IMG/VR virus record: IMGVR_UViG_3300028584_001237
Length of the DNA stretch: 64,000 nucleotides
Direction: 5' to 3' (one strand)
From: a virus
Shown here piece by piece: positions 2,953-63,856 of the stretch (its first letter is position 1; each line of letters opens with the position of its first letter). The position numbers and the translations under genes were made by a program. The notes under the pieces are model-generated. The model had not been told where the DNA came from and did not search any database. It saw only the letters and a program-made list of their open reading frames with translations.

Positions 2953-3645
2953 ATGTCAAACACGATACGGGCTAAACGTAGTGATCCACCAGTAAAGAAA
3001 GGTGGTCAAGATGAATTTAAACGGCTACGGGTGAAATTAGCCACCAAAACAGTTAAAATCATCGAGCATTTCAATATGGGTAAACAACTCGCAGAGCAGA
3101 TTATGGATTGTCTTGCTTATCGAGACATACAGTTTAATGAACAATTTTCATTTAAATTTGATACACCAATGAAAGGTAAGCGTATTCCACCATCAACCAT
3201 TACGCTTAAAGAATTTGAACAGCCATTCAAATTCTATATAAGTAATCATAAAGTAAGTAAACCAGCTACTTGTGTCATCACCTTTGACAATAACCAAGAA
3301 GTTCTTGATATTGTATTTAAATTTAACTATACAGTTAAAGGTGATCGATATAATCAATTCTTTGTGAAGTTAATATATGATTCAAAATTTAAATTGTTAG
3401 TTTTTGATGTAGATGAACGCTTTTATGACACTCAAACTAAAAGAATGTCAACCAACAGCATGAAAAAAGATAGTCAACTTCTGTGCAGTGAAGAAGACGA
3501 ATTGTTTCTGCTGAATATGCAATTTAACAAAGACAACACAATGTTAAAAGAAGTCATGCCAGAATGGCATATACCATCAGCGTATGATTTCAATTCATAT
3601 GACTACGTGTCTCGCCTTGGCATGGTTGATATGTTGCTGGTCTAA
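2953..3645 (+). CDS. C-terminal 'DMxxI' motif family protein
   Basis: ends PEWHIPSAYDF...RLGMVDMLLV; promoter TTGATA-N17-TAGTAT at 2894-2922. Confidence 0.85.
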   Translation: MSNTIRAKRSDPPVKKGGQDEFKRLRVKLATKTVKIIEHFNMGKQLAEQIMDCLAYRDIQFNEQFSFKFDTPMKGKRIPPSTITLKEFEQPFKFYISNHKVSKPATCVITFDNNQEVLDIVFKFNYTVKGDRYNQFFVKLIYDSKFKLLVFDVDERFYDTQTKRMSTNSMKKDSQLLCSEEDELFLLNMQFNKDNTMLKEVMPEWHIPSAYDFNSYDYVSRLGMVDMLLV

Positions 3646-3655
3646 TTTTAGGGAT

Positions 3656-3683
3656 AAAAAAAAGAGGCTGCGGCCTCTTTTTT
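3656..3683. terminator. bidirectional intrinsic terminator
   Basis: A8-GAGGCTGCGGCCTC-T6 between convergent genes. Confidence 0.9.
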
Positions 3684-3708
3684 ATTATGTAGAAATCTAA
3701 TATTTATA

Positions 3709-5010
3709 TCAATACATCATAATTTCCAATAATCGAAGATCATCAACGGTTACAACATCAGAATCGACATTGAGAGCTTCCTTTATTTTTTTAGTGACAA
3801 TTTTTAATAACTCATTATATATATCAATGAAACTATCCTTAATTATTTTTTCATTACGATCAAGACTTAATTCTAAATTTTTATCTCCTAAATACAAGGC
3901 AAAATTAGATAGTATAAACAGGTAAGCATAATCATCTTTTCTAGGAGATCGATCAATCTCTGAATAACTACGCCTATGCATAGAAATTTTTTTACCAATA
4001 AGATATTGAAAAGTATCAGGGTATTTTGCATTTGATCTTCTTTTGAAATCTCTCATAGCACAATTATTAAGAAAAAGTTCATCATAAAATTGAAGCAAAG
4101 AAAACACAGAATTTAAATAAGAAAGTTCTATTTCATCCAAAACATCTTTTAAAATATATTTAACAAAAAAATGATCATTTGAATGAAAACTTATGTCAGA
4201 AAAGTAATATTCTTCTATAAAGTAATCAAAATCCTTGATAAAACCCAATTGATTTATACATTCACCTTCTTTAAAATCTTCATTAAAATCGCAAACAAGC
4301 AATGTTTTTAATGGAATATTTTCTACTGATACAGAGGTGCTGTTTATTTTAATTGGATGGTCATAATTACGAAGTCTTTCATTAAATGTGTGATCATCCA
4401 TTATTTTAAAAGTTTTATCAGAAAATTGTTTTTCATAATATTCCCATGTCGATCCATTAACAATTTTCTGTACAATATTATTATCAATAATAAGGCTATC
4501 ATCTTTAAAATATTGATAAAACGCAGATTTAAAGTTTTTAAAAATTAATTCATACAATACATCTATTGTTATTTTTTCAATATTTCTGTATTTAAAAAAA
4601 AGCTCATTGGTCAATTCAACATCTTCAAAAACTCCATCAATATACTTAAAACTGAATAAAGGGCTTTTAAAGCTAAAATAATTATTTGAAAATACAATGT
4701 GACATTCTTCATCGTAGTAACAATTTTTAGAAAAAATTATTTGATAAAAATTAAGAATAGAAAAGAAATTTTTAACAGTATATTTTCCTTCCTCGGGAAA
4801 TATTTTTTCAAAAATAGCTATAATAAGATCATTATCATAATCAAAAACTGAAGTAATTCTATGGTCTTCAAAATTTACACGATTAACTCCTTTGTCATAA
4901 TTAGATTGACCTAAACGATTGTCATAAAGATTAAACCCTAATTCAGAAAGATGGGGCAATAAAATTAATGGATCTCTAATAATTTTTTCAACAAAGAGTT
5001 CTTGATTCAT
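3709..5010 (-). CDS. very AT-rich hypothetical protein, C-terminal motif family (divergent)
   Basis: 433 aa; ends DDLRLLEIMMY. Confidence 0.8.
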   Translation of the reverse strand: MNQELFVEKIIRDPLILLPHLSELGFNLYDNRLGQSNYDKGVNRVNFEDHRITSVFDYDNDLIIAIFEKIFPEEGKYTVKNFFSILNFYQIIFSKNCYYDEECHIVFSNNYFSFKSPLFSFKYIDGVFEDVELTNELFFKYRNIEKITIDVLYELIFKNFKSAFYQYFKDDSLIIDNNIVQKIVNGSTWEYYEKQFSDKTFKIMDDHTFNERLRNYDHPIKINSTSVSVENIPLKTLLVCDFNEDFKEGECINQLGFIKDFDYFIEEYYFSDISFHSNDHFFVKYILKDVLDEIELSYLNSVFSLLQFYDELFLNNCAMRDFKRRSNAKYPDTFQYLIGKKISMHRRSYSEIDRSPRKDDYAYLFILSNFALYLGDKNLELSLDRNEKIIKDSFIDIYNELLKIVTKKIKEALNVDSDVVTVDDLRLLEIMMY

Positions 5011-5186
5011 TTATGATACTTCCTATGATTTTTAAGTTATTAATAGTTCAAACGTTCTGCATTCGGTCAAACCTCGCATCTGCTGTTTACCTTTACTATT
5101 TTATTAACCAATTCTTTATATTCAACGCTTTTCATCAAATTTATATTCATAATTCTCTCCAAAGTAAAGAGGCTGAAGTCTCTTTT

Positions 5187-5654
5187 TTAATTGGCATTAA
5201 AGATCAATGGGATTAAAAACTTTTCTTCTATTTCTGCATAAAGACCATCAAAATCAGGATTCTTTATCGGAATTCCAAGTTTACTTTCGCATTCTTTCAT
5301 AAATACTTCAAATTTATCGGGATCGTCATCTAGGCAAAATAAGAAATAAGGCCAATTTGACTCTGTATCACCGACAATTTTAATTGTAAATTCGTTGTCT
5401 ACATGAACTATATAATCTATATTATTTAAATTTAAAACACCATAAACATAAGAGTTAATCTCATAAAGAACATTTATTGTTTTTATTATGTTAAAATTAT
5501 TTACAGATTCTTGATTAGCCAAATCCTCTACATAATAAGATTTATCTTCAAAAGGAAAAGAATTAATATTTTTAAATCTTCTCCAAGGATATGGATTTAT
5601 AATATCATCAACTATCTTTTGATATTCAGCACTTCTCATTAATTCAATATTCAT
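5187..5654 (-). CDS. candidate immunity protein for upstream nuclease toxin
   Basis: acidic 155 aa ORF 31 nt after the toxin stop; C-terminal half loosely SUKH/SMI1-like (IVHVDNE...YFL). Confidence 0.5.
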   Translation of the reverse strand: MNIELMRSAEYQKIVDDIINPYPWRRFKNINSFPFEDKSYYVEDLANQESVNNFNIIKTINVLYEINSYVYGVLNLNNIDYIVHVDNEFTIKIVGDTESNWPYFLFCLDDDPDKFEVFMKECESKLGIPIKNPDFDGLYAEIEEKFLIPLIFNAN

Positions 5655-5685
5655 AATTTCTCCAATAAGATTAATAATTTAACAT

Positions 5686-8354: not shown

Positions 8355-8759
8355 TCAATCTCGCCAGTAAACTTGAAACTTTTCACCTTTTTCATCATAA
8401 AATAAAACTTGCATCATTGTCATGTCTGCAAAATACAACATGGCTTCATGAGCAGTGGCATCACGTTCAATTTCAATGTAGACAGGTTCACCATCAATAT
8501 CAACCTGAAAGTTAAATTCCCAATTGTTGATATCAGCCAAAAACTTATCAGGAAATGGTGAACTCTGCCGTCTATTTTCACGAATGGCAGTTTTGAGTTC
8601 ATCAAATAAAAGAATATACTTTTCGAGATCCTTAAAGTTGCCACTACGAATTTCGGTCCAACTTGAATTGCTGTGGTCGGAATCACCATGCTCATAGTCA
8701 ACTTCAATTTCAAAGCGTGGAAGCACATTCTTTACAATGGATTTCAATTCAAATTGCAT
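8355..8759 (-). CDS. small acidic protein, module copy 1 gene C; paralog of 13225..13626
   Basis: M.FEL.......PRFEI...Y.HG N-terminus and YDEKG.KF.V.W.D C-terminus shared. Confidence 0.85.
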   Translation of the reverse strand: MQFELKSIVKNVLPRFEIEVDYEHGDSDHSNSSWTEIRSGNFKDLEKYILLFDELKTAIRENRRQSSPFPDKFLADINNWEFNFQVDIDGEPVYIEIERDATAHEAMLYFADMTMMQVLFYDEKGEKFQVYWRD

Positions 8760-8867
8760 AAAAAAGCCTCTTCGTTAGAAAAGGGATTATATCAAAATTA
8801 AGTCAAAAATACAAGTTATTATTAAAATTTATAGCATGAAATTAGAATATTATCTATAAAAAACACC

Positions 8868-10295
8868 TTACAAGGTGTTTTTTGATTTTGTCTTTTTTGG
8901 AGTAGGTGTGTCATCTTGTTTATAGATTTTAAACGCTTCTTTAAACTTTTTCGAATGGTGAATTTCTATAGATTTTTTCATGTCTATATCACCATTCAAC
9001 AATATAAGATTAGGATATTGTTCTTGAACAAGTTTATGTAGCTCATCTTTTCTTATATGATATAAAAATGAACAATTATTGTCATCTAAATCAAGGATGA
9101 TTTGATTTTTTTCCAAGTAATCTAACACAGATAAAAGATAATCAATTTTCTTTTCATCAGGCGTGGCGTGAGCAATGTCAGATTGAATATAAGTGCAAAT
9201 TTTCAAATCAGCTTTATCAATAATAGTTAAATTGTGATAATAAGGTTTGAAAAATATGTTATCACCGTATATATGAACACTATTCGTTTCAGATTGCATA
9301 AAGCGGCCTGAGATGTGTGTATAACCATCCGTGTAGGTAGGATAAGCGGATATGACAAAAGATTTAGAACTTAATAGATCGAAGTCAGCAGTAGATTCTA
9401 ACAAAGAAACACCCATTGCTCTAATACCATTATCATCTATTACAGAATGAACCAAGGAATCATCAAAAGATTTAAACCATTCTGGATAACTTGATTTTAG
9501 ACTATCTATGAATTCGTTTAACGCTGGTGTATTTAACAACTCTTCTTCTGTTTTAGCATTAAGCAATAGACCTGTTTTCAAAATTTGCTGAAATTTGAAT
9601 AAATCAAAATATTGATCAAGAGCAGTATAGTAATCGTCCATTAATTTATCATAACTTGTTTCACATGGGCCAGAATACCCTTCCGTAGTAACAATCACAA
9701 AAGATCTAAACTTCTGAGCCATTTGGTAGACACTAAAATCGGAACCCAATAATATTTCAGAAGCTAACTGTTCTTTTAATTGCTCAAGATGATGCTTAAC
9801 AGTATTTTCTTTTGGTTGTTCTTCCTTTAATGTTGTTCCCAAATTTTCAAGTGTATTGGCAATATTGAAAGCTAACAGTCTATATGATATTCGGTCAGTA
9901 TCGGAGGAATCAATATTCTTACTATATTCTTGTTTAAAGTTCTCAACAAAAGACTTAAAAGAATGGCTCTCTTTCAAAATAGCTAACATTTTTTCGGCAT
10001 TTAAATGATCTTCTTTTCTTAATACAGGTACAGAATTATTGATTTCTCCTTTATGTAAGTCAAAAAATATAGAATCATCTAACTTTACAACAAAGTTTTT
10101 GTTATGATACTGCAATAAAATAGGATGCTTTGCAGAATCCGTTTTCGCAATAGACAAATTATAATAATCGTTGAGAAAAGTAGATTGGCAAAATTTAATC
10201 GTGGCGTAATAATCAAAGTTACTATCAGTGATAGCATGTGTTGATTTGAAATCTGTTAATGAAGATAAGAATTCTTGTGATGTAGCTTTTTTCAT
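8868..10295 (-). CDS. uncharacterised 475 aa protein, module copy 1 gene B; paralog of 13689..15074
   Basis: full-length similarity (MKKAT..EF, AYP.YTDGY.HIS.RF); 4-nt ATGA overlap with upstream gene; basic tail. Confidence 0.85.
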   Translation of the reverse strand: MKKATSQEFLSSLTDFKSTHAITDSNFDYYATIKFCQSTFLNDYYNLSIAKTDSAKHPILLQYHNKNFVVKLDDSIFFDLHKGEINNSVPVLRKEDHLNAEKMLAILKESHSFKSFVENFKQEYSKNIDSSDTDRISYRLLAFNIANTLENLGTTLKEEQPKENTVKHHLEQLKEQLASEILLGSDFSVYQMAQKFRSFVIVTTEGYSGPCETSYDKLMDDYYTALDQYFDLFKFQQILKTGLLLNAKTEEELLNTPALNEFIDSLKSSYPEWFKSFDDSLVHSVIDDNGIRAMGVSLLESTADFDLLSSKSFVISAYPTYTDGYTHISGRFMQSETNSVHIYGDNIFFKPYYHNLTIIDKADLKICTYIQSDIAHATPDEKKIDYLLSVLDYLEKNQIILDLDDNNCSFLYHIRKDELHKLVQEQYPNLILLNGDIDMKKSIEIHHSKKFKEAFKIYKQDDTPTPKKTKSKNTL

Positions 10296-12139
10296 ACATT
10301 TCTCATTTTTAAAGGTTTAGTTACTTTTTTAACATCTCTAAAATTAAGAGATTCTTCCATTTCAAAAAGTTTCTCTTCTGATAGTTTGTGTTGTTTTCTA
10401 TTAGTGTAAATAGTGTTTGTTTGTATATGTGCAAGATCTTCTGATTTATCATATGAACTAATAGCGTCATCATTTTTTAGATGTTCAGCATAAATTGTAC
10501 CCCACTTATCAACAGTAAATCCAATCATGGAATTAATATCAGTTGAAGCTTTATTGAAGTCATACATAATATACTGAATATTACGACGATCAGAAACATA
10601 CTGGTCATAGTATTCTTGATCTCGAACAATACACCAAGAGGTTGAACCTAATGCTTCACATTGCTCATAAGTCTTAACCTCAAAAGTAACAACATTATTA
10701 TCATCATGAAGTTTATTTATTCCCAATGCAGATATTTTTTCAGATAAGGCTTCTTGTGTAAACCCATCAACATGATTAAGTATTCCACTCAACATAGAAA
10801 TAACATCTTCATTAGAATCAAGTGCAGCCAGTTTTTTGCCCACAAACGTTTGTAATTGAGCAGTTGTTACATTGTTGTCATATAAGGCTTTAAAATGAGG
10901 CTCGGTGATGTCATTAAATAAATGTTTATATTTAGCACTAAGAATACTAAATGCAAATTGTTTTATTTTATTTTTGTTGACTATATGGTTAATGTCATCG
11001 TCTATTGATTCAAATGTTTTATTCTTCCAAGAATTCAAATCAACATTATATTGTTTTAGAACCGAGTAGTTATCTAAAAATGAAATAGCTGCAGTAATAG
11101 AATTGTTATAGCTTACATCTTCTTTTAACTTATCTTGAAAGAAACTAATTGTCTTAGGTTTCTTTCTTAATAAATAAGCGAGAGCATCATTATGAAGGTC
11201 ACTGATAAAAGCTTTCAATGATTCGGTATCTTTGAATGTGTGATATTGACCATCCCTTTTATAAGCAATGCTGGCATCGTCAAAAAAGACAACTTTATTA
11301 ATTTTTTGAGCCGCTGTGAAATCAATAGACGTATAAACAGAATCATCAGTTAACATTTTTTCAATAAGAAAACCTTCAACAGATGATGTGTCATTATTTT
11401 TATTTAAAGTCTCTATAAACAAATCTGCATTCGTAATAAACATTGAAGGATTTATTTTAGTAAGTTCAACTTTAACAGTATCTAAGAATATCTGATTAGC
11501 AACGGTATATTCGTCATATAACTTCGTTAAGTTATTCATGTCAGGAGTATTGTTTTTTATATAATTCTCGATAGAGTTAACAACATAAGATTTGTCATCT
11601 TTATGAAGTAAAGAAATACCTAATTGATTAGTTAATGTGTAGTTAAACATTAAAAATTTATTAACTTCAACATATTGTTTTTCAATTTTTTTTGAAATTT
11701 CTTTTATTGATTTTATTTGCTGAGCAAGTGTATCCGACATGTCCTCATTAAATTCATAAGACCCAGCCATTTGTGAATAATAAAAATCAGACCATACGGA
11801 ATTAACATCATCTTGAAGATCTGTCATTAACATAATGTGGTTTTTTTCAAAAGAATCTGGTGTAACCTTGGAAGCATAAAGGTCAACATCAAATTCACTA
11901 TTTAGAGAAGATACATCCGTGGATAGTATGGTGTCAACATAGCCAGATAATTTAGCAATAGTCTCTTTTATGTTTGGAACATTAGTTAATATTCTGTTGG
12001 CTTTATTTTTTTTCAACTCGGGTATAAAGGTCATTTCGTTATAATGTAAAAAATTATAAGAATTTACAGCCTCCCAACCATCGGGTGCAAGTCTAGTGGC
12101 TAAGTGTGTAATCTGTTTTAAACTTTCTTTCAAATCCAT
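10292..12139 (-). CDS. 615 aa protein with C-terminal PcfJ-like (LG.TSWCI.RD) domain, module copy 1 gene A
   Basis: EV..YEQC.ALG.TSWCIVRD..Y..QY motif; paralog of 15071..16912 and 35399..37258. Confidence 0.7.
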   Translation of the reverse strand: MDLKESLKQITHLATRLAPDGWEAVNSYNFLHYNEMTFIPELKKNKANRILTNVPNIKETIAKLSGYVDTILSTDVSSLNSEFDVDLYASKVTPDSFEKNHIMLMTDLQDDVNSVWSDFYYSQMAGSYEFNEDMSDTLAQQIKSIKEISKKIEKQYVEVNKFLMFNYTLTNQLGISLLHKDDKSYVVNSIENYIKNNTPDMNNLTKLYDEYTVANQIFLDTVKVELTKINPSMFITNADLFIETLNKNNDTSSVEGFLIEKMLTDDSVYTSIDFTAAQKINKVVFFDDASIAYKRDGQYHTFKDTESLKAFISDLHNDALAYLLRKKPKTISFFQDKLKEDVSYNNSITAAISFLDNYSVLKQYNVDLNSWKNKTFESIDDDINHIVNKNKIKQFAFSILSAKYKHLFNDITEPHFKALYDNNVTTAQLQTFVGKKLAALDSNEDVISMLSGILNHVDGFTQEALSEKISALGINKLHDDNNVVTFEVKTYEQCEALGSTSWCIVRDQEYYDQYVSDRRNIQYIMYDFNKASTDINSMIGFTVDKWGTIYAEHLKNDDAISSYDKSEDLAHIQTNTIYTNRKQHKLSEEKLFEMEESLNFRDVKKVTKPLKMRNV

Positions 12140-12188
12140 AGATAAACAATAAATTAATTAATATTAGTATACCATAAAAATATAATTA

Positions 12189-13157
12189 TTAAATATCAAT
12201 CATGTCTTGAAGAATCAAACGAGTATCCAGCTCATCCATAGATAGATTGGAAAAGTCATAAGCTGATGGCCTATACAGTTCAGGCAATAATTCTGAATAT
12301 TTAGCAAGCGTTTCTGAATCGTTCAGAAATTTTAGAAGTTGATATAAGATGGATTTATACTCATCTGGAGTAAAGTGTTTGAAAAATAATTTAGGCTTTT
12401 GATCGTAGGAATAAGGTTTTGCTTTTTTTTCAGTGGTAATAAAACCATATGTAGGTGATGATCGAGAATACTCAAAATGTTCACGATGAAGATCAGTGGC
12501 TGAAAACAATTTAAATTTAAACTCTTTTACAGTGAAGTCAGATTTAAAGTATACATAACCCCGATATAAGAGTTCAACATTGGTGGTGATGTTTAAAACT
12601 TTTCTTAAAAAAGCTTCATGTTCTGGGGTAAACCTAATATTTATATTAACAAAATAATAACCGGTTTTTGCGATTAACCTGTCAGGGGCCAAAGACCCAG
12701 AAATAGAAAAATCAGTAGAAACACTTTTTGTCTTTAAATCAGTCAGAAATCGTTGTTTAAAGGTTTCTCCAACAAATAAACCATCAAAAATTTTTTCGAA
12801 AGAAGCTGACAATTGTTCTCGAATGATCAAATCATCCTGCTTAGCTGTTTGAAAGCTTTCCTCAAGAAAATCTGTAAGGGCAGCTCTCGAATTTTCTCTT
12901 TTTATCTTATAAATAGTGTAAACAGAATCTTTACTTATAAAATCCGAGAAGAATAGACACTCACCAGAAGATTCTAGAATAGGCTTCATAAATTCTTCTA
13001 ATTCTTCTAAAACCTTTGAAGGGTTTTTGGAGTAGTCAACAAAATGCTGTGGAGACAAATAAGGAAGTCTGATAACGACATTTTTAACAAGAAATCGATC
13101 ACGCTTCCTGTAATCGGAAGATGCGTATTGAATATTTTCGATATAGTCTGCGAACAT
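12189..13157 (-). CDS. C-terminal 'DMxxI' motif family protein
   Basis: ends LLPELYRPSAYDF...RLILQDMIDI; lies between the two module copies. Confidence 0.85.
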   Translation of the reverse strand: MFADYIENIQYASSDYRKRDRFLVKNVVIRLPYLSPQHFVDYSKNPSKVLEELEEFMKPILESSGECLFFSDFISKDSVYTIYKIKRENSRAALTDFLEESFQTAKQDDLIIREQLSASFEKIFDGLFVGETFKQRFLTDLKTKSVSTDFSISGSLAPDRLIAKTGYYFVNINIRFTPEHEAFLRKVLNITTNVELLYRGYVYFKSDFTVKEFKFKLFSATDLHREHFEYSRSSPTYGFITTEKKAKPYSYDQKPKLFFKHFTPDEYKSILYQLLKFLNDSETLAKYSELLPELYRPSAYDFSNLSMDELDTRLILQDMIDI

Positions 13158-13224
13158 TATGTCGTTACCTTCGTTTTAATAGTAAAAATACTACTGCCAT
13201 TATAGACTGAATTGTGTTGTTAAG

Positions 13225-13626
13225 TCAATCTGTCCATTTTACATCAAACTTAACACCATGTTCATTGTAGTAAACAATTTTATTGATAGCCATTCTGGCA
13301 AAACAATCAAAGTCATCATTGGTTTCATCATTAATCAAATCAATGGAAACATTATCAAGACCGTCAACATCAAAACTGGAGAAGTAATCTTCAAAATCGC
13401 CTCTGTACTCTACTGGATATTCAACGCCTTCTGATCGGTTTGCTTCAACCATATCTCTAAGCTCATTAAAGCGAGAGATGTATTTTTCGAGATCGTTTAA
13501 ATCTCCACTAGGAACAATAGCTGTTTCCTGACGGACATTATAGTCAGTAGCCCCATGAATGTATTCAATAGTGATTTCAAAACGTGGAGCAATGTCTTGC
13601 TCCACAGGAGTTAGCTCAAATTTCAT
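13225..13626 (-). CDS. small acidic protein, module copy 2 gene C
   Basis: paralog of 8355..8759. Confidence 0.85.
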   Translation of the reverse strand: MKFELTPVEQDIAPRFEITIEYIHGATDYNVRQETAIVPSGDLNDLEKYISRFNELRDMVEANRSEGVEYPVEYRGDFEDYFSSFDVDGLDNVSIDLINDETNDDFDCFARMAINKIVYYNEHGVKFDVKWTD

Positions 13627-13688
13627 AAAAAAACCTTTTCATTAGAAAAGGTATTATATCAAAAAAATGTATTATTTACAATATTTAT

Positions 13689-19250: not shown

Positions 19251-19892
19251 ATGGAACATTTAACAAAAGAAGAGTTTAAAGAAAAATTAGAATTATCAGC
19301 GTTAATGTATTTACTCATGATAGTCAATAAACCAATAACTGATAAAAATTCTACATCATACATTTGGCATTATCGGTTCATAAATTTTTTAAATGCAATG
19401 TTAAGTAACAATGACATTCCAGAAGGTAGTTCTCTTAAAGAAATAATAGAATTTACTATTGATAATAAATCTGAAAAATTAAACCAATATCTTGATTATT
19501 TACCGGGTTTGAGATTACCATTCGGTGAAAATAAAGATTTTGATGCACTGGCACTTCAAAATCATAGCTGGATGGTATTGATGCTTAATCATGGAAATGA
19601 AGACTATGAAAAAAGTATAACGAGTGATTCTGATTATAAATTAACATTTAAAGAACAGAATTGTTTTACCTTCTCAAATAAAGATAACCACTTACATATA
19701 CAATCAAATTCCTCAAACATACTAGACTATAAGTGGACAATAATAAGTGTAGAATGCAATAATAACGTCATCATTAAAAATATAAATTTTGATAACGAGG
19801 CCGATATTCGATACTATCTGACAAATTATGAAGACTTGGCACATTTACAAAATAATGATGCCAATACCATGATTGATATATTGCGATTTTGA
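19251..19892 (+). CDS. hypothetical protein, C-terminal motif family (divergent)
   Basis: AGGA SD; ends NTMIDILRF. Confidence 0.75.
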   Translation: MEHLTKEEFKEKLELSALMYLLMIVNKPITDKNSTSYIWHYRFINFLNAMLSNNDIPEGSSLKEIIEFTIDNKSEKLNQYLDYLPGLRLPFGENKDFDALALQNHSWMVLMLNHGNEDYEKSITSDSDYKLTFKEQNCFTFSNKDNHLHIQSNSSNILDYKWTIISVECNNNVIIKNINFDNEADIRYYLTNYEDLAHLQNNDANTMIDILRF

Positions 19893-20943: not shown

Positions 20944-21717
20944 TTATTGAATATGGATCATTTCGAAAAGTGGAAGTTTATCACCAAAAGCTACATCATC
21001 TGCATGAAATGGCGACGTAGAATCTGGCTGTCCTTCATGGAATTTTGTAATCACATTGTCTACAAACTTGTGAACAAACTTATCAATGTCTTCACCTACA
21101 TTGAAAACCTTATTTTCAGTGAAAAAACCTTCATAAATATTGACTGTTTCTGTAATAACATGAATAGTTTGATCATCAAGATTAAAACCTACACGAAAAT
21201 CGCTGGCGGTATTGGTTAACAATGACATCGCCGCCATCGGTTTCAATGTATTGTCTTCTGTGAAACGATAGGAGAACTGAGCAATACAGCCATACTCTTT
21301 GTTGCCCACTTTCGACACAAGATTGAAACGGGTATCTGCATCGTAAAAGTCCATAAAATCGTCAGCAAATGACTTGGTGAAGTATTTGCTAAGGTCCATC
21401 GGTTGGATGGGCTGAAAGACTTCATTGAACAGTTTATTATTATTCACTTCAGCTGTAAAGGTGTTCAAGACAAGAGCAGCTTCAGTGTAATAAGTGTCTA
21501 ATCCAAAAAGCGGACAGATATCTGCGAGATGATCGTTGTGAATGGATACACTGTAAATGCTGTTACCACACACATTGAAAAACAATTTCATATCACCATC
21601 ACCAACCGACACAAAAATTTCTGAGCCACCTTCGCTCACTCTGTGCTTGTCATGTGGAAAATGCTTATCCAAAAACTTATGGACTAGCTCAAGCATTTGA
21701 TTGTTGATATCTGTCAT
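20944..21717 (-). CDS. C-terminal motif family protein; paralog of 22618..23403
   Basis: ends DDVAFGDKLPLFEMIHIQ; full-length similarity. Confidence 0.85.
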   Translation of the reverse strand: MTDINNQMLELVHKFLDKHFPHDKHRVSEGGSEIFVSVGDGDMKLFFNVCGNSIYSVSIHNDHLADICPLFGLDTYYTEAALVLNTFTAEVNNNKLFNEVFQPIQPMDLSKYFTKSFADDFMDFYDADTRFNLVSKVGNKEYGCIAQFSYRFTEDNTLKPMAAMSLLTNTASDFRVGFNLDDQTIHVITETVNIYEGFFTENKVFNVGEDIDKFVHKFVDNVITKFHEGQPDSTSPFHADDVAFGDKLPLFEMIHIQ

Positions 21718-22617: not shown

Positions 22618-23403
22618 TTAAATCGCACTCATTTTAAAAAGTTCCAATTTGTCTTTAAACGACACATCATCTGGAATAAATTGCTCTTCGGGGCGATCTT
22701 TATGGAAACATGTAATCCAGTCATTCAAAAAGTTAACCACAAACGCATTGATTTCAGTTTCAAAATTGAACGCTTTATTACTAACAAAAAAGTCCTCATA
22801 GATATCAACAGTCTCAGTAATGCTATGAACGGTTTGATTATCGAGGTCAAACCCCACACCGATTCGATAATAAGCCATTTCACCATAAAACAAGGCAATT
22901 GCAGGCAAACATTTCAGTTTATTGGTTTTGGTGAACCGAAAAGCAAACTGAGCAATACCTTGGCGTTTAACGCTACCGGTTTTCGTAATCAATGAAACCC
23001 TTTCGTCAGCATCATAAATGTCTTTGTAGGTGTCTTCAAACTTAGAATAAGTCGTCATGTGTTTACTGAAATCGACCATCGGAACAGGATTAAATACTTG
23101 ATTGAAGGCTTCATTTTTGTTGAGACTTTGGATAAAGTCATTGAGAATGTTTGTCGATTCCGGCTGAAATTCATTCAAACCAAAAAGGGGAGCGATGGCG
23201 TCAAAATGCTCTTCATGAATAACAACATTGTAAACACTATTACTTAACAGACGAAAAGACAATTTAAAATTGCGTTCTACACCCACATCTACGGCAAATT
23301 CACTGCCAACTGGACGAATACTATGTGGATCATTCGGAAAATGTTCATCCAAGAACTTTTCGGTCAAAGTTACCATCATGTTTTGAGTGTCGGTCATTAT
23401 CAT
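22618..23403 (-). CDS. C-terminal motif family protein; paralog of 20944..21717
   Basis: ends DDVSFKDKLELFKMSAI. Confidence 0.85.
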   Translation of the reverse strand: MIMTDTQNMMVTLTEKFLDEHFPNDPHSIRPVGSEFAVDVGVERNFKLSFRLLSNSVYNVVIHEEHFDAIAPLFGLNEFQPESTNILNDFIQSLNKNEAFNQVFNPVPMVDFSKHMTTYSKFEDTYKDIYDADERVSLITKTGSVKRQGIAQFAFRFTKTNKLKCLPAIALFYGEMAYYRIGVGFDLDNQTVHSITETVDIYEDFFVSNKAFNFETEINAFVVNFLNDWITCFHKDRPEEQFIPDDVSFKDKLELFKMSAI

Positions 23404-26355: not shown

Positions 26356-27108
26356 TCAAAATTTGACCATATCCACCAGAATTAATCTATCTGTAAAGTT
26401 TGAATTATTGTAATCACAAACACAATCATTGACTAATTCAGGAAGTAGACTAACAGTAATTGGATCTTGTTTCATCTTCTCAATGATATACGAAAGATAA
26501 AGGTCATTGATACTATAACATGAAACCGGATACTCTTGATAATCAATTCTATTACCATACATTTCTTCTAAGTCATAAGTTTCCAAAGACAAAAAAATTG
26601 TATCTAAATTTCTATTCTTAGATATTTTAATGTCTTTATAAATAAATATTGGACTTAATCGTAAAGGTTCATTGACAACAAACCTAATAGTGATTGTTTG
26701 ATCCACTTGGATAACCTTACCTTTTCCATAAGAAATAGTAATGTGTTCAGATAACTCTGAATCATCAAATTTTAATGGATGAATATTGGGTTCAATTGCT
26801 GCTGACAACAGATCAGTTGTAACACTCAGAAAACCATTCCAAGCATATGAACCAGAAGCCAGAATAACCTTTGTTTTTTTATGCCTAATAACAAAGCCAT
26901 TAAATAAATAGAAAACAACAATGTAATCTTGATGGTTAAACAGCTCAGTATTATATAAGTTGTTCAAAACAATGCATAAATCTTTTTTTAACTTATCAAA
27001 TTTAAAAAATTTAGCGATTAACCAATAAAATGGCAATAATAAAATCCAAGCCATAACGAACAACGCCGAGAAAATCCTAAAAATAATCAAATCATAACTC
27101 CTAAACAA
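26356..27108 (-). CDS. C-terminal motif family protein with N-terminal hydrophobic segment
   Basis: ends LLPELV...DRLILVDMVKF; start uncertain. Confidence 0.8.
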   Translation of the reverse strand: MFRSYDLIIFRIFSALFVMAWILLLPFYWLIAKFFKFDKLKKDLCIVLNNLYNTELFNHQDYIVVFYLFNGFVIRHKKTKVILASGSYAWNGFLSVTTDLLSAAIEPNIHPLKFDDSELSEHITISYGKGKVIQVDQTITIRFVVNEPLRLSPIFIYKDIKISKNRNLDTIFLSLETYDLEEMYGNRIDYQEYPVSCYSINDLYLSYIIEKMKQDPITVSLLPELVNDCVCDYNNSNFTDRLILVDMVKF

Positions 27109-29292: not shown

Positions 29293-29973
29293 TTAAACGA
29301 TCAGCATTCTGGCAATCGTCATATTAGACTCAATCTCATTCATATCAAAAGTGTAAGCACCTTCTACATAGAATGATTGAAAAAGATCTTGAACATCACA
29401 GTTGCTAGAATTCAAAAACAATTCAATAAACATCATTTCTTCATCTACCGAACACAGCATATCCTTTGTTTTCGATACATCGACAAGTGCCGTTTTATCT
29501 CCATTAACGCGTCGATAATGGATTTTTTCAATGTCAAAATTACTATCAAAAACAATAAAAATCTTGCTCATGATGAATTCAGAATTACGAAGAGCCAAAA
29601 AACTATAAGAAACTTCAAATTTTGACATCAATGCCGCTTCATCTGTATAAAACTTACACTCATTCCTGATGCGTAAGAAATCACTAGCATGAATGCTCAA
29701 TAAGAATGCAAAAATGGATTGGGTTGGTTGAAAGTTCAAAAGTTCAATCTTGAAAAGAGCTGGATCATACATTTCACCAAAATTTTTTATACAGTCATCA
29801 TTAAAAGAAGAACCGCAACCAAATCGTTCAAAAATGGTTTGAGAAATGTTTCTGATAACTGCGGTTGCCTTTCTTTTGGACTCTTTTTTCTGTTCTGCAA
29901 AAGGTATAAAAACAACAACATTATCTTTATTCTGTTGATACTGTTGAAACATGGAAGGTTGAGAGATCAACAT
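29293..29973 (-). CDS. C-terminal motif family protein; related to 2953..3645
   Basis: MLCSVDEEMMF ~ LLCSEEDELFL; ends GAYTF...MTIARMLIV. Confidence 0.8.
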   Translation of the reverse strand: MLISQPSMFQQYQQNKDNVVVFIPFAEQKKESKRKATAVIRNISQTIFERFGCGSSFNDDCIKNFGEMYDPALFKIELLNFQPTQSIFAFLLSIHASDFLRIRNECKFYTDEAALMSKFEVSYSFLALRNSEFIMSKIFIVFDSNFDIEKIHYRRVNGDKTALVDVSKTKDMLCSVDEEMMFIELFLNSSNCDVQDLFQSFYVEGAYTFDMNEIESNMTIARMLIV

Positions 29974-34490: not shown

Positions 34491-34760
34491 TTAAATGTCA
34501 TTCATTCTGTCAAAAACTCGCTGGTCAATATCGCCAAACCGTTCTTGAGTGATTTTGTTCACCAGATAGCTAAACAAACGCTTAGGCATGTCATAACCTT
34601 CAACTTTCGCAACACGCTTGCAATCAAGACACATAAAGCAAGCATGTGGAGGATACGTGTTGGACTCTTTGAAATCTTTCATGTTTTCTGTGCGATGAAT
34701 GCTACCACAATGGTTGCATTTGACTTCCATCACTTCATTGCTAACAAGTTCCATAATCAA
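34491..34760 (-). CDS. zinc-ribbon protein
   Basis: CNHC...CLDC. Confidence 0.75.
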   Translation of the reverse strand: MIMELVSNEVMEVKCNHCGSIHRTENMKDFKESNTYPPHACFMCLDCKRVAKVEGYDMPKRLFSYLVNKITQERFGDIDQRVFDRMNDI

Positions 34761-57086: not shown

Positions 57087-58001
57087 TTAAATTTGATACA
57101 TTTCAAGACATTTAAATTCATCTATTGTCATGTCACTAATTTGATGATCGCCATACATATCTTTAAACACTGCCTTAAACTGTGAAGTTGGCTTATCTTT
57201 AACCATGTAAAAAACCAAAATTGTCAAAATTCTTTGTATTTCATCATAATCGCTGGTTTTATTACCTTCACAAAATTGAGTTTTACTATTGATACTAAGC
57301 ACACCAGAACAATATTTAACCATGATAAACTCATGACTAGACCAAAAACAATATGTAAAGTCATCATTAAAAATATTGACATCACAATGAAAATTAAGCC
57401 TTTCAGAATAATGTAAAAGATTAAAAATTGAAGGAAATAAGGATTCTTCTGTCTTGATAATCGTTTTATATACTGTGTCTTCTGAGACAATGTAGTCAAT
57501 TCTTAATTGATCATTATAAAAAGTGCTATTATTATGTATTTTAGTTGAAATAGAAAATTTGCGTTCCTTTGAATCCCTATGAGTTGAAGCTGCAAAAAAA
57601 TAGATATTATCGACAAAAACTGCTTTTTGATACTCATTAGAGCAAGGAACTTCTGAATAATAACCAAAGGCATCCAAAACCTTGATTAGACTTGGTTCAT
57701 CAAGATAAGAAAAAATACAGTTATAAAGAATATAACCATGATCGATATTAAAGTGTGTTTTTGGATAATTGCCTTTCTTAAAAGTTTCCAAATAATCACT
57801 TTTAGCAAAAGATTTATCAAGATAACTGTATTTACGTTTACCTTTTTCATCCTCAAAAATGAAATTAATCATGAACTCATGTTCATTGACAATATCAATG
57901 GTAATTGTTTTATTTTCGAAAAAATAAGAATAGCTGAAAACTTCGCCGTAAGTGATCGGCACAGGTTTTGTCTTCAGTTCGTCCAACGAAATAATAGGCA
58001 T
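57087..58001 (-). CDS. C-terminal motif family protein
   Basis: ends MTIDEFKCLEMYQI. Confidence 0.8.
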   Translation of the reverse strand: MPIISLDELKTKPVPITYGEVFSYSYFFENKTITIDIVNEHEFMINFIFEDEKGKRKYSYLDKSFAKSDYLETFKKGNYPKTHFNIDHGYILYNCIFSYLDEPSLIKVLDAFGYYSEVPCSNEYQKAVFVDNIYFFAASTHRDSKERKFSISTKIHNNSTFYNDQLRIDYIVSEDTVYKTIIKTEESLFPSIFNLLHYSERLNFHCDVNIFNDDFTYCFWSSHEFIMVKYCSGVLSINSKTQFCEGNKTSDYDEIQRILTILVFYMVKDKPTSQFKAVFKDMYGDHQISDMTIDEFKCLEMYQI

Positions 58002-58845: not shown

Positions 58846-59586
58846 TCAGATTTTTATCATATTGACCATATGTTCATAAGCGTGCAAATTATCATCATTC
58901 AAATCAGTAGCCAAGTCAATAACAGTATCAAGACTTTGCTGAACTGATGGATGGCAATAGTAAGACAATAATGTATGAAAAGCCGCCAATTGGTTTTCTG
59001 GTTTAAATTTAACCAACGTTTCTCGCTGGTAATTATCTACATAAGTTTTAGAGTCAAAATTAACATCAATGAACTTAAAAGAAAGATCAAAAGAAATATT
59101 ATAATGAACGTTTTTATTTAAAACATTTGAATGTTTAGAAAAATTGAACTTAATAATACCATTGTGATCTTTATCGTTCATTGCGATAGACATATCAACC
59201 AAGATAGAATATGTCAGTTCCTGAAATAGATTGTGTCCAATCTGATTTTTTATATCTCGCATCAAAGCTTTAAACCAGACAAGGTTTGAAATAAATTCCT
59301 CATCATCATTGCTTGGACTAAACGTTTCTGGTTGAGCCAATAATCTGAAGACGGTATATAAGCCAGCCGAAGATCGCAATGAAAACAAATAGTCATCACT
59401 GTGTGTTGGCTTCGAGCATAAAAAAAGCCGATGACCACGTTGTAAATAGTTATTCCTAATATAAATATTACCGGCATCTCCAGTTCCAATATGAGAGAGT
59501 TCTAATGATACGTCTGAAATTTGAGGGTTTTCATAAGACATGATTAATTTAATTAATCGGTTGGCTAATGTTATATGACTAGACAT
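58846..59586 (-). CDS. C-terminal motif family protein
   Basis: ends LHAYEHMVNMIKI. Confidence 0.8.
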   Translation of the reverse strand: MSSHITLANRLIKLIMSYENPQISDVSLELSHIGTGDAGNIYIRNNYLQRGHRLFLCSKPTHSDDYLFSLRSSAGLYTVFRLLAQPETFSPSNDDEEFISNLVWFKALMRDIKNQIGHNLFQELTYSILVDMSIAMNDKDHNGIIKFNFSKHSNVLNKNVHYNISFDLSFKFIDVNFDSKTYVDNYQRETLVKFKPENQLAAFHTLLSYYCHPSVQQSLDTVIDLATDLNDDNLHAYEHMVNMIKI

Positions 59587-60922: not shown

Positions 60923-60937
60923 AATTAACTCCTATTG

Positions 60938-61514: not shown

Positions 61515-61824
61515 ATGACCAGTAATGAAGACTTCACCTTTTTAAGAAAACTAGAAGCTAGAGGTCGTGATCTTGGAATAATAGTTTCTCATGAATACAA
61601 AATGTTCATTTTAGAAGAATTCCAAAAAAATCCTGATTTGGACATTGAATATTATTTTGTCTTCGAAAACAGAATAAAGCTGCTTGAAGAAAGAATTAGC
61701 CTTTCAAAAGCCAACATTTGGGGAGTTCATTGAAAACATCAAAGAAGAAATTCAACGAGCAAAAGAAGCCGATGATCAAAATTTTTCATTCAATTACATT
61801 GAAAAATACGAATATAACGAATAA
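61515..61824 (+). pseudogene. hypothetical gene with apparent +1 frameshift near 61690
   Basis: ATG 61515 (GGGAG SD) stops at 61733; an overlapping frame continues ELAFQKPTFGEFIENIKEEIQ... to TAA 61824. Confidence 0.45.
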
Positions 61825-61893
61825 TCAATCAACTTAAGTAGAAAAACCAAGGATTTTGATGTCCTTGGTTTTTTTTGGATTAGAGAAAAAAGA

Positions 61894-62328
61894 TTATTCA
61901 GTGACAGGTTTTTTCAGTTCATCCAAACGACCTTCACGTTTCAGCTTCCGATATTCGCTGATGGTCACACCGTAGTGAGCTGCCAGCTCTTTCACACTAC
62001 CGGCTGGGTCTTGCTGGTTCATGCCGACAAACGATTTTTCAACGCTTGATTTGAGTTGACGTTTTTCAGCTTCAATCCCACGTTTAATGGCTTCGACTGC
62101 GTAAGCTTTGATTTGAGCTTTCAGGCGTTCCAAATCTGCGTCCACTTCCGGGGTTTGAAGTTCTTCTTCATATTCCGGTGCCCGTTGTTCGCGGGTGTGG
62201 AACAATGCACAACGAAGTTCAAGATCCGCCTGACCTGTAATGAACATGTCAATATGATGATGCCAAGCACCAATAATGTTCAAACCAACCATCACTTTGC
62301 TGCGTGGGGCGTCAATTGGAGTTTTCAT
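61894..62328 (-). CDS. protein with C-terminal HTH-like basic domain
   Basis: VKELAAHYGVTISEYRKLKREG. Confidence 0.7.
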   Translation of the reverse strand: MKTPIDAPRSKVMVGLNIIGAWHHHIDMFITGQADLELRCALFHTREQRAPEYEEELQTPEVDADLERLKAQIKAYAVEAIKRGIEAEKRQLKSSVEKSFVGMNQQDPAGSVKELAAHYGVTISEYRKLKREGRLDELKKPVTE

Positions 62329-62383
62329 CTATTCGTTCCTGTGTGTGTTTGATAGGTGTATTATAGCACAATATGGCTGGAAG

Positions 62384-62698
62384 TTAAGCACTAAATAGTG
62401 ATTTCAAGCCTTCTTTTTTAATGATTTCACCGTTATCGACAATCATTTGAGCCATATGGTGCATTTCATGCCGAATCAACACCTGAGACACCAAATCAAC
62501 AGTCTCGGCATATGCCCCTACCAGATCAATGCTGGGATCTTCCTTAAAAGTATTCTCGGCAGTCTGCAAAACACTGACAATAGAGTCGATCATTGCAGTC
62601 GTCATCCGATACTCAGGGTCGAGTTTCAGCATCAAAATCGAAGCTCGAATAATATTGTTATTACCACGAATAACATCAGAAGCTTCACGAGAAGACAT
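62384..62698 (-). CDS. helical hypothetical protein
   Basis: 104 aa, AAGG SD. Confidence 0.8.
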   Translation of the reverse strand: MSSREASDVIRGNNNIIRASILMLKLDPEYRMTTAMIDSIVSVLQTAENTFKEDPSIDLVGAYAETVDLVSQVLIRHEMHHMAQMIVDNGEIIKKEGLKSLFSA

Positions 62699-62791
62699 AA
62701 TAAATACCTTTGTTTAATTAAGTTAAAGGATTATACCACAACCCTCACTCTTGAACAACCACTGAGAAGTCATTAATGGTTGATGGTGTGA

Positions 62792-63004
62792 TTAATCAAC
62801 CGTTTCTTTTGCTTTCTTCCTGACAATAAGGTCACGGGCGACACGGAAGAGTTCTGAACAATAAATTTTACCAACGGTGGTTTTCTGTGCAACTTCTTGC
62901 ATCAACTGCTGCTTTGTATATTGTGCTTCGGTTGTCTTGTAAACAACTTGATCATCAGCCAATTCAGATAAACAAGCTACAACAAAATCAGGAATGTCAC
63001 TCAT
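62792..63004 (-). CDS. small hypothetical protein
   Basis: 70 aa, overlaps GNAT stop. Confidence 0.75.
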   Translation of the reverse strand: MSDIPDFVVACLSELADDQVVYKTTEAQYTKQQLMQEVAQKTTVGKIYCSELFRVARDLIVRKKAKETVD

Positions 63005-63425
63005 CTTTAATTGCTCCGGTATGTTTTTCTAAAACAGTCAATTTTCTCTTTTTCCCGTTTTCTATACCGACAATGGTCATGCCATTTTTAGAATAGAAAC
63101 GTAATGCTTTTACATTGTCTTCTGTGGTTTTCAATCGAATAGGCAATGGGACACTATCAAACAATTGTTGTCCAACACCTTGAGATTGAAGATTTTTCGC
63201 AACAGCAAGCTCATGGACAGTATGCCATCCATCCTTACGGGGATGGTAGTGAACGAAACCAACCACACCAGACAGATCTTCAAAGACCAAAAGAGATTTT
63301 TTCTGGACAGCTTCCATCAACGCAACTTTCATCACAAAGCCAATAAACTCTCTGTTCTGGTTAGCGATACGTTTTATGTCCGTTAAATCATGTTCTGTGG
63401 CAAGACGGATCATGGAATGCCTCAT
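62997..63425 (-). CDS. GNAT family N-acetyltransferase
   Basis: IRLAT..DL, VGF, ELAV....QSQGVGQQL, N.KALRFY.KNG. Confidence 0.9.
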   Translation of the reverse strand: MRHSMIRLATEHDLTDIKRIANQNREFIGFVMKVALMEAVQKKSLLVFEDLSGVVGFVHYHPRKDGWHTVHELAVAKNLQSQGVGQQLFDSVPLPIRLKTTEDNVKALRFYSKNGMTIVGIENGKKRKLTVLEKHTGAIKDE

Positions 63426-63449
63426 AATAAGCTGTCTTTTAAGACATGT

Positions 63450-63502
63450 ATTATAGCATATTAAGAAAACAACAGCAATGAGAAAACCACCCGAAGGTGG
63501 TC
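63450..63502 (-). promoter_or_regulatory. terminator-promoter cassette (TTGCTG-N17-TATAAT)
   Basis: read directly. Confidence 0.85.
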
Positions 63503-63856
63503 TTAAATCTGGTACATATCCACTACTGTCAGGGTTTCACGAGACAAAGGCAAAGAAGCTTGCAAGCCAATGTCAGAAAGAGTGTTTAAGATTGTTTTTG
63601 ATGGGTGTTTGAGTTGCAAAACATCAAATTCATCTTTCACCATATTACTAACATCCTTTTCATGTTTTTTTGCAAGAACTTGATCAAATAAAGATTGCTG
63701 TGTTGTTACTTTGCCTTTATGCCAAGTGACTGACACCATACGGCTAATTCTATAAAACTGCTTGCCATACTTTAAAATGTTTATAAATTTAATGAATGAC
63801 GAATCTACTTTGCATTCTGCTGATCGATCATGGAAATTATCAAAATAGACTATCAT
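63503..63856 (-). CDS. C-terminal motif family protein (short)
   Basis: ends RETLTVVDMYQI; likely start ATG 63856. Confidence 0.75.
   Translation of the reverse strand: MIVYFDNFHDRSAECKVDSSFIKFINILKYGKQFYRISRMVSVTWHKGKVTTQQSLFDQVLAKKHEKDVSNMVKDEFDVLQLKHPSKTILNTLSDIGLQASLPLSRETLTVVDMYQI

Follow-up and report, generated by a model that had tools for sequence, protein, structure and literature searches.

A conserved C-terminal helix on many orphan protein families of a probable huge-phage lineage

Introduction

Why should about eleven divergent proteins, encoded on both strands of one stretch of viral DNA, end in nearly the same way? The stretch, called the window below, is the whole 64,000 nt analyzed from IMG/VR record IMGVR_UViG_3300028584_001237. 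An initial annotation of its open reading frames (ORFs) had described a common C-terminal helix, here called the tag, in which a Met lies close to the end, and had proposed that variable protein bodies carry this helix as a constant handle for one shared partner. The eleven C-termini are as that annotation wrote them, and all eleven translations agree. We find that the tag system is larger than was first seen. The reading of the helix as a free tag is partly supported, and the lineage that carries it is probably one of huge phages. The evidence concerns the anchoring of the motif, the domain that it closes in one family, its spread through related genomes and the kinship of its carriers.

A Motif Anchored at the C-Terminus

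Positions are counted back from the last residue, which is -1. The full motif was taken to require Met at -4 and a hydrophobe at -1, with hydrophobes also filling two or more of positions -9, -7 and -6. A greedy set of non-overlapping ORFs (n = 106) covers 87% of the window, and 8 of the 106 end in the full motif, whereas 0.26 are expected from its internal frequency (binomial p = 4e-10). Mirrored N-termini of the same ORFs gave one case, and shuffled 30-residue tails averaged 0.43 and did not exceed 4. The motif therefore stands above shuffled termini. When every residue was scanned at each of the last ten positions, Met at -4 ranked first in the window (12 vs. 3.1 expected). It was again the top signal (60 vs. 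19.1 expected, p = 2e-14 over 300 tests) in a paralogy-reduced set of 655 BLAST-cluster representatives, drawn from the window, three related loci and the two related IMG/VR records that were analyzed whole (G002 and G005). Placement is exact: at C-terminal offsets 0 to 8 the motif counts are 110, 7, 1, 3, 0, 2, 1, 3, and 2.

Both codons and residues vary under the hydrophobic positions of the motif, and all three stop codons occur after it, which argues for selection at the level of the protein. The logo of 49 cluster representatives reads D(-11)-x-h(-9)-x-L(-7)-h(-6)-[EKD](-5)-M(-4)-h(-3)-x-I(-1), where h is a hydrophobe, with acidic residues further upstream. Position -3 is mostly I, L or M and position -1 is I, Y, F or V; Ile occupies -1 in 30 of the 49 and Asp occupies -11 in 23. 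Hydrophobic residues are found at six of the last ten positions, a composition that would suit a packed helix better than a free peptide.

Tagged Genes of the Window

The tagged ORFs fall into several families, labeled by letter; their lengths are given in amino acids (aa). They are listed below together with one untagged paralogue.

2953..3645, + strand: 230 aa, family A; domain at aa 82-229; ends RLGMVDMLLV; matched by the hidden Markov model (HMM) of the last 150 residues at E = 8.5e-36
12189..13157, - strand: 322 aa, family A; domain at aa 181-322; ends RLILQDMIDI
26356..27108, - strand: 250 aa, family A; domain at aa 108-250; transmembrane-like hydrophobic segment at aa 4-35; ends RLILVDMVKF
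29293..29973, - strand: 226 aa, divergent member of family A; domain at aa 80-225; ends NMTIARMLIV
58846..59586, - strand: 246 aa, distant member of the family A superfamily; ends YEHMVNMIKI
20944..21717, - strand: 257 aa, family B; ends KLPLFEMIHI followed by an extra Q
22618..23403, - strand: 261 aa, family B; ends KLELFKMSAI
63503..64000, - strand: family C protein, cut by the window edge to its C-terminal part; ends TLTVVDMYQI
57087..58001, - strand: 304 aa, family D; ends EFKCLEMYQI
3709..5010, - strand: 433 aa, in a second tagged superfamily; variant tail DLRLLEIMMY with Ile at -4
19251..19892, + strand: 213 aa, family G; variant tail NTMIDILRF
2209..2841, - strand: 210 aa, untagged paralogue of the 26356 body, without the PSAYDF loop and the terminal helix (last ~40 aa)

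Conservation of the tail is strong in most of these families. In 12 orthologs of 12189 (60-96% identity) the last ~45 aa are nearly unchanged and rank among the best-conserved segments (13th of 311), with the D, M, D and I of the tail invariant. Among 13 homologs the K, F, M and I of the 22618 tail do not vary. ORFs 20944 and 22618 are paralogous over their full length (BLAST, 46% identity, E = 2e-68), and the nearest homolog of 20944, P0128, ends in ...MIHI. For family C the tail is the best-conserved region (rank 4 of 364). The relatives of 63503 lie past the right edge of the window in the related contig L010 as three tandem paralogues of 327, 385, and 375 aa, all tagged. The same contig holds a tagged ortholog of 58846 and one of 57087 (73% identity), which ends GEFKCLEMYEI. 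Both Ile variants noted at the outset hold: the ortholog of 3709 keeps ...LEIMLY, and the orthologs of 19251 (45-60% identity) end NDIMEMLMY, with Met at -4. Family 19251 is the weakest member of the set, since its tail is among the least conserved parts of the protein.

ORF 2209 resembles the body of 26356 (BLAST E = 1e-14, aa 17-206 against aa 23-211 of 250) and lacks the ending, as does its ortholog in the related locus L003. The terminal module is thus separable, because 2209 has the body of 26356 without the last ~40 aa. ORF 2209 and the tagged family A gene 2953 are divergent neighbors, a pairing that is kept in the syntenic loci L002 and L003. The pair raises the question of whether the missing helix is supplied in trans by the tagged neighbor.

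Two further groups of proteins in the window have a Met at the same position. An 89-aa Cys-rich protein at 34491-34760 (- strand), zinc-ribbon-like and with two CxxC-like pairs, ends RVFDRMNDI. The ending has Met at -4 and Ile at -1 but an incomplete hydrophobic pattern, and the protein may be a minimal or a chance carrier. At 8355-16912 a module of three genes is duplicated in tandem, one copy encoding proteins of 615, 475, and 134 aa and the other of 613, 461, and 133 aa. The tagged gene 12189 separates the copies, a layout also found in L002. The 613-615-aa proteins of the module end K-P-L-[KQ]-M-R-x-x, with Met at -4; a third paralogue at 35399-37258 has no such end.

The PSAYDF Domain of Family A

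All-vs-all BLAST within the window matched 2953 with 29293 over ~120 aa (E = 5e-5) and, in the tail region, with 12189 and 26356. When an HMM was built from the last 60 residues of these four, it recovered only the same four in the window. The L.PE.Y.PSAYDF extension that had been noticed in them is confirmed. When 1.84 billion representative proteins were searched with a profile of the final 50 residues, 105 clusters (formed at 50% identity) scored E <= 1e-3, of which 104 align at the extreme C-terminus; the exception is P0112. The tail consensus of the family is L-P-E-x-x-I-P-S-A-Y-D-F-N-S-x-x-F-x-x-R-L-x-L-x-x-M-x-x-h-COOH, in which a near-invariant P-E...P-S-A-Y-D-F loop precedes [RK]-L-x-L-x-[DE]-M-x-x-[IVFY]-COOH. 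Exactly three residues follow the -4 position in 94 of 98 clusters, and that position is Met in 86.

The conserved region is longer than the tail. The HMM of the last 150 residues matches 2953, 29293, 26356, and 12189 at E = 9e-36 to 2e-12 (29293 at E = 1e-18), with boundaries that reach the C-terminus. By this domain 20944, 22618, 63503, 57087, 3709, and 19251 do not belong to family A. The last 150 aa of 2953 were modeled by AlphaFold2 with 101 homologs at a predicted local distance difference test (pLDDT) score of 95.3 and a predicted template modeling (pTM) score of 0.85. The model has six strands, followed by helices at 100-111, 116-121, and 136-149. The last of these is the tag; it is placed within the compact predicted domain at a pLDDT of 93-95. 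A homodimer prediction with two copies of the domain scored 0.00, which is evidence neither way.

No known relative of the domain emerged. Foldseek found no match to the 2953 model at E <= 1e-3 in PDB or BFVD, and in the AFDB clusters template modeling (TM) scores did not exceed 0.47. The ESM Atlas gave TM scores of at most 0.50 and no usable match for 2953, and the best VIA-align hit had Z 6.4 and covered the sheet only. A structural relative had been required to match most of the domain at TM > 0.5 or Z >= 8. The domain is without a match in Pfam, PHROGs, PDB and AFDB clusters, and a literature search did not find 'PSAYDF'. The family A domain as modeled (~145 aa, alpha/beta) is an undescribed family and fold.

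The Tag in Related Genomes

The tag is retained where the window has relatives. In the syntenic loci L002 and L003, which belong to a relative at ~60% identity, the tail persists in the orthologs of 2953, 3709, 12189, and 22618, and two further tagged genes (191 and 271 aa) have no homolog in the window. A distant locus, L009, holds a family A member and an unrelated tagged protein of 391 aa, with a gene for T4-type RNA ligase 1 (Rnl1) and a weak RegB match as neighbors. An IMG/VR scan using the PSAYDF tail found eight loci in five records (G001-G005) of 152-290 kb. The counts for the two records analyzed whole are as follows, where the family A numbers take in a few ORFs without the full motif.

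G005: 290 kb, 507 ORFs, 40 with the full motif, 8 detectable family A members
G002: 193 kb, 314 ORFs, 49 with the full motif, 9 detectable family A members

Chance would give about one tagged ORF in each. In the pooled set of 1027 ORFs, 112 are tagged, and these are spread over 49 of 728 BLAST clusters, where ~2.7 would be expected. Within a cluster the tag is constant (17/18, 15/16, 6/6, and 5/5 members), and it is absent from 45 of the 58 clusters with at least three members. Among ORFs of at least 150 aa the tagged share is 20% in the window, 27% in G002 and 17% in G005.

The tagged proteins resemble each other in kind. Their median length is 259 aa (interquartile range 220-320), they are acidic, and 7% have a transmembrane-like segment. 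Many of their genes lie in tandem arrays. One of these, T1 (G002:169034-180847, L044-L045), has 13 head-to-tail paralogues of ~260 aa, many of which overlap by a few codons, and all of them end ...[LM]-L-L-[LI]-[DE]-M-Q-x-I; the array is also present at L020 in G004. Ten members from the window gave no Pfam match over its cut-off and one weak PHROG match. For 80 tagged ORFs of G002 and G005, none matches Pfam and one matches a PHROG (E <= 1e-4); in contrast, the 148 longest untagged ORFs of G005 match 32 Pfam families. A literature search for conserved C-termini or paralogous families in huge phages returned nothing relevant.

Kinship among Tagged Families

The initial annotation had described the bodies as largely dissimilar. 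This has to be qualified, since at least five of the eleven share the ~145-aa domain and two are full-length paralogues; 3709 belongs to a second superfamily, and the remaining families share the tail only. Among 11 larger tagged clusters compared by hhalign, 4 of 55 pairs scored E < 1e-3, while 0 of 90 tagged-untagged control pairs fell below 0.01. Family A matches array T1 at E = 3e-5 over 128 columns, and still at 3e-4 without the last 15 aa. A merged family A profile matches the 58846 family at E = 7.5e-5 over 113 collinear columns that run to the C-terminus (controls >=0.15). Single-family comparisons of these two are marginal, and an iterative HMM search also recruits 58846. The cluster of 3709 (T7) belongs to this second superfamily: its C-terminal ~130 aa match tagged clusters T5 (E = 2e-5) and T10 (E = 4e-5), and with merged profiles a fourth cluster, T8, joins at E = 0.002.

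Other relations are confined to the end of the protein. The tails of families B and A (last 60 aa) align over 53 columns at E = 6e-4 (controls >=0.04), and those of C and A are borderline at 0.03. When 22618 of family B is compared with the whole family A domain, only the last 15-20 aa align. Families C, D, F, and G, taken as single sequences or small families, gave hhalign scores at control level against the domain profile.

The proposal of variable bodies with a constant handle stands in so far as the motif is anchored at the C-terminus, selected, constant within each family and found across many families unrelated in sequence. It does not stand for 2953, 12189, 26356, and 29293, where the motif is the final helix of the modeled ~145-aa domain. 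The opposite case that the initial annotation had itself named, of homologs of a single fold with the helix as a structural element, comes close to describing about half of the members, not all.

Carrier Lineage and Replicon

The window is 30-38% G+C along its length and densely coding, with one strand dominating transcription. A 14-kb stretch of it, when scanned, showed intergenic enrichment of sigma-70-like promoter sites (85 vs. 56 expected) and intrinsic-terminator hairpins (20 vs. 7.4 expected). The window encodes tRNA-Gly(UCC), tRNA-Leu(UAA), and tRNA-Arg(UCU). Known domains are few among its proteins (MYG1, SLT, DEDDh exonuclease, SCP2 sterol-transfer, GNAT and RNA ligase), and some proteins match PHROGs strongly. 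We interpret the window as a stretch of early genes in the genome of a large, uncultured phage.

Near-identical DNA occurs in metagenomes from food production, food, groundwater, freshwater and peat. Searches of 50,697 reference phage genomes (nucleotide and protein) with 12189, a consensus-like family A member and an 8-kb stretch gave no match, and two other window proteins gave remote matches only. Two scans of GTDB species genomes found no relatives of the window, and the PSAYDF family is absent from 185,579 such genomes. An IMG/VR scan using the 12189 family likewise found no relative.

Records G001-G005 are labeled 'provirus' in IMG/VR, and one is 96% complete by CheckV. A T4-type capsid, family B polymerase, large terminase, Terminase_6N and ribosomal protein S2 were not found in the five. 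G005 encodes an M17 aminopeptidase, a Na/H exchanger and an amino-acid kinase, which are genes of cellular type, and also a T4-type RNA ligase, TnpB and WHH/colicin-DNase nucleases. It has 35 tRNA genes in 290 kb, among them about a dozen for tRNA-Leu(UAA) and several for Arg(UCU) and Met. Two have a CUA anticodon (amber-suppressor type), which hints at stop-codon reassignment in part of this genome. A SUKH/SMI1-KNR4-type immunity-like protein is encoded at L010:7248-7832 (- strand); together with the WHH/colicin-DNase toxin domains of G005 it makes polymorphic-toxin-style modules seem recurrent in the lineage.

A phage as carrier is indicated by the tRNA redundancy and the PHROG matches. Since that redundancy in G005 is joined by the absence of the PSAYDF family from GTDB species genomes, the evidence favors a very large phage as the replicon. 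The metagenomic contigs that carry homologs range in size from 86 kb to 1.86 Mb. Close homologs in conserved synteny are found on contigs of 0.83-1.86 Mb, e.g., L002 (ENA, 1.28 Mb) and L010 (ENA, 1.84 Mb), with protein matches that include P0009, P0012, P0119, P0131, and P0137. Stretches of 20 kb read from the Mb-scale contigs are orphan-rich and phage-like, as is the window. These contigs represent either a replicon far larger than any described phage, or an integrated or chimeric assembly, or something else. With homologs on contigs of 0.8-1.86 Mb, the genomes of the carriers may lie far above the current phage size record. A literature search for phage genomes above 1 Mb returned nothing relevant.

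What the Constant Helix May Be

We see an even chance that the tagged genes form one or a few hugely expanded, fast-diverging superfamilies of early genes, in which the constant C-terminal helix is a shared functional surface. The motif would be the C-terminal capping helix of lineage-specific, soluble, acidic orphan proteins. In family A it is predicted to close the ~145-aa domain; the other tagged families may be further diverged relatives or sharers of the same terminal module. The N-terminal parts and the surface of the sheet would diversify by duplication in the style of an arms race, and binders for host take-over or anti-defense are plausible roles. The helix, the PSAYDF loop and the free C-terminus would evolve most slowly because of a common functional surface, which would both close the domain and contact a shared partner or a sister subunit. 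The step to a shared contact is suggested by the exact C-terminal anchoring and the near-fixed Met. The best-sampled superfamily comprises 2953, 12189, 26356, 29293, 58846, more than 100 metagenomic clusters and, as a relative, the 13-gene tandem array. To judge from the DNA around them, tagged genes appear to stand alone behind sigma-70-type promoters, like early genes. A coherent class is favored over a tag bolted on diverse proteins because none of 80 tagged proteins matches Pfam and the range of lengths is narrow; the uniform sizes and the want of any known domain make a handle on diverse proteins a poor fit.

Several results weigh against reading the tagged genes as one coherent class with a structural helix. 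AlphaFold2 modeling with a deep alignment covers one family, A. The model of 12189, built from 13 sequences, has a pLDDT of 67 and a low-confidence tail, and fold searches with it found nothing; the floppy tail is regarded as an artefact of the shallow alignment. Starting from family A, an iterative HMM search recruits no more than 5 of the 49 tagged clusters. For B, C, D, G, T4, and T9, similarity to other tagged families is limited to the final 10-20 residues (55 in the case of B), so that common ancestry is supported for part of the class only. The distance that separates the acidic N-cap region from the D/E-M core varies among families, as expected of a short motif attached independently. 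The motif ends exactly three residues past the Met in 110 of 117 cases. Such exact termination, together with a near-fixed Met (86/98 in family A), is unusual for a helix that is merely structural. Finally, the sheet domain persists in 2209 without the terminal module.

Several of these points bear on a different reading, which takes the helix for a genuine signal for sorting or docking at the C-terminus, acquired by several unrelated folds through recombination or convergence and read by one receptor. The receptor would recognize the helix and the free carboxylate, and the outcome could be virion loading, compartment import, export or scaffold assembly. In its full form this would be a proteome-scale address code, in which about a fifth of medium-sized proteins from dozens of unrelated families end in D-x-L-x-L-L-[ED]-M-I-x-I-COOH and are sorted, assembled, exported or timed during infection by one dedicated receptor. 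To our knowledge, no protein-targeting system of such a kind is known for viruses of bacteria. We hold both the signal and its full form to be possible and rather doubtful. The 49 BLAST-distinct clusters, most without detectable kinship beyond the tail, speak for it, as do the strict anchoring (110 at offset 0 vs. 7 at offset 1), the near-fixed Met with Ile at -1 and an acidic N-cap or linker ahead (D at -11), and the variable spacing to the upstream acidic region. So do the natural tail-less paralogue 2209, the place of the tail among the best-conserved segments in families A, B and C, and the share of tagged ORFs, a scale that recalls effector or cargo repertoires. It is opposed by the family A helix, which is confidently modeled inside its domain, and by a hydrophobicity too great for exposure alone. 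The tagged proteins also have uniform lengths and no known enzymatic or binding domain, unlike known sets of tagged cargo, and no candidate receptor was found in the related records. The initial annotation had suggested a capsid-loading signal. Virion loading especially is a poor match for genes that, in the manner of early genes, each carry their own sigma-70-type promoter and intrinsic terminator, and no capsid, portal or terminase genes are linked to the tagged genes. The sorting reading and the shared-surface reading overlap if the family A helix can undock.

Three other explanations carry much less weight. A C-terminal degron, by which a host or phage protease (ClpXP, Lon, or a Prc-type enzyme) would remove early proteins on time, is improbable. 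It would agree with the exact anchoring, the hydrophobic last residue and the early-gene style of expression suggested by the promoters, and all five related records encode small trypsin-like peptidases. However, those peptidases carry lipoprotein signal peptides and so are not cytoplasmic, the motif is unlike the ssrA/LAA-type or MuA-type ClpX signals, a degron needs neither 10-15 conserved helical residues nor a fixed Met, and the family A helix is modeled as folded into the domain. We think it very improbable that the tail binds a sliding clamp (PIP-like, after the PCNA-interacting peptide) and tethers many proteins to a phage gp45-type or host clamp. C-terminal peptides of T4 and RB69 proteins bind gp45 (PMC6212786, PMC2705854). 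The RB69 DNA polymerase, gp43, ends in one such peptide, ...SLFDMFDF. It shares L(-7), D(-5) and M(-4) with ...LILQDMIDI-like tails and, as they do, has hydrophobes at -6, -3 and -1, which is a resemblance only, over seven residues and to a single known peptide. The lineage also has T4-like features (tRNAs Gly-UCC, Leu-UAA and Arg-UCU; Rnl1 and the weak RegB match in L009). Against a clamp, no clamp gene was found: PF02916 (DNA_PPF) gave one match in the five related records, at 17-18 bits against a cut-off of 25 and inside a tagged paralogue of the tandem array, and none in the window. The lack of a T4-type capsid and family B polymerase in those records points the same way; clamp-binding peptides sit on flexible tails, whereas the family A helix is in a predicted folded domain, and a fifth of the medium-sized ORFs on one clamp is implausible. 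That the motif is due to chance, to composition or to a gene-end signal in DNA or RNA (a terminator, promoter or coupling element) is barely credible. In its favor, the genome is AT-rich (~35% G+C), codons for Ile, Leu and Lys abound, only one codon specifies Met, and regular terminator-promoter cassettes follow the genes. This is outweighed by the 8 cases against 0.26 in the window and the 49 independent clusters against ~3 expected, by shuffled-tail, mirrored N-terminus and internal-position controls that all stay at background, by the many codons and residues at each hydrophobic position and the use of all three stop codons, and by the helical N-cap logic of a motif that continues into a conserved protein domain.

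Possible partners were also sought among peptidases and PDZ proteins. G001-G005 encode one to three trypsin-like serine peptidases each (~200-260 aa; e.g., G005:136433-137032 and G002:118648-119286), and the window none; the four that were read, from G002 and G005, have a lipoprotein signal peptide and a GGMSGGPV active-site motif. The tails conform to the class II PDZ-ligand pattern (h-x-h-COOH), with hydrophobes at -3 and -1. As for a PDZ receptor, the only PDZ_2 match (16.8 bits, sub-threshold) lies inside the M17 aminopeptidase, and the trypsin-like peptidases are PDZ-less, so a receptor encoded alongside the tags was rejected; any PDZ receptor would be a host protein.

Significance and Comparison with Known Systems

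Huge phages consist mostly of orphan genes. A single C-terminal signature that marks 17-27% of the ORFs of at least 150 aa in these records gives a handle on such genes, and at least one new domain family, confidently foldable by prediction, is defined. If the helix is a shared contact surface, its partner would give dozens of genes per genome one mechanism, and the variable parts would point to what an arms race is aimed at. Should it prove to be a genuine sorting signal, a type of protein targeting new for viruses would have been found, along with a portable tag. On a conservative reading, the family is a clean marker of an uncultured phage lineage that reference phage collections and GTDB have missed.

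The nearest shapes are those of levivirus coat and actin-capping protein, which have an antiparallel meander sheet with one face covered by C-terminal helices (VIA-align Z 5-6.4). The scores are below the level of homology, only the sheet aligns (~residues 1-114 of the model), the terminal helix falls outside the alignment and there is no sequence similarity. The clamp peptides of T4 and RB69 (gp43, gp33 and gp55 on gp45) are likewise short hydrophobic C-terminal motifs on otherwise unrelated proteins, and the ...LFDMFDF of RB69 gp43 matches the core h-h-D-M-h-x-h-COOH position for position (PMC6212786). They differ from the present system, where neither the window nor the related records yielded a clamp gene, the helix is modeled in a domain and each genome has dozens of carriers.

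Cargo-loading peptides of encapsulins and encapsulation peptides of microcompartments are terminal peptides of unrelated cargo that are read by a shell protein. The shells of encapsulins have the HK97 fold, as do phage capsids, and their peptides are rich in Gly, Ser and Leu and non-helical, with few cargo proteins per system. The likeness is a short terminal peptide or helix common to unrelated proteins; the present case differs in having a helix, many carriers, early-looking genes and no linked shell or capsid gene. The effectors of Dot/Icm (type IVB) secretion make up ~10% of the Legionella proteome and carry their signal in the last 20-30 residues, with acidic residues upstream and a hydrophobe near -3 or -4; the signal is compositional, without a fixed helix or an invariant Met. 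A large proteome share of orphan proteins with a C-terminal signal is common to both systems, whereas here the helix is fixed and its Met near-fixed, no secretion system genes were seen and the carrier is phage-like.

The poxvirus ankyrin-repeat proteins with a C-terminal PRANC/F-box and the MGFs (multigene families) of African swine fever virus are multigene families of large viruses, and a likeness to PRANC/F-box proteins had been suggested at the outset. It fails in detail: Pfam detects no ankyrin, F-box or PRANC in any tagged protein; the carrier, with its sigma-70-type promoters and intrinsic terminators, resembles a bacterial virus, whose host would have no SCF ligase; and the constant part here is a ~145-aa alpha/beta domain without a known relative. 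What the systems have in common is their organization, in which a big viral genome carries lineage-specific tandem families that combine variable N-terminal parts with a constant C-terminal helical module.

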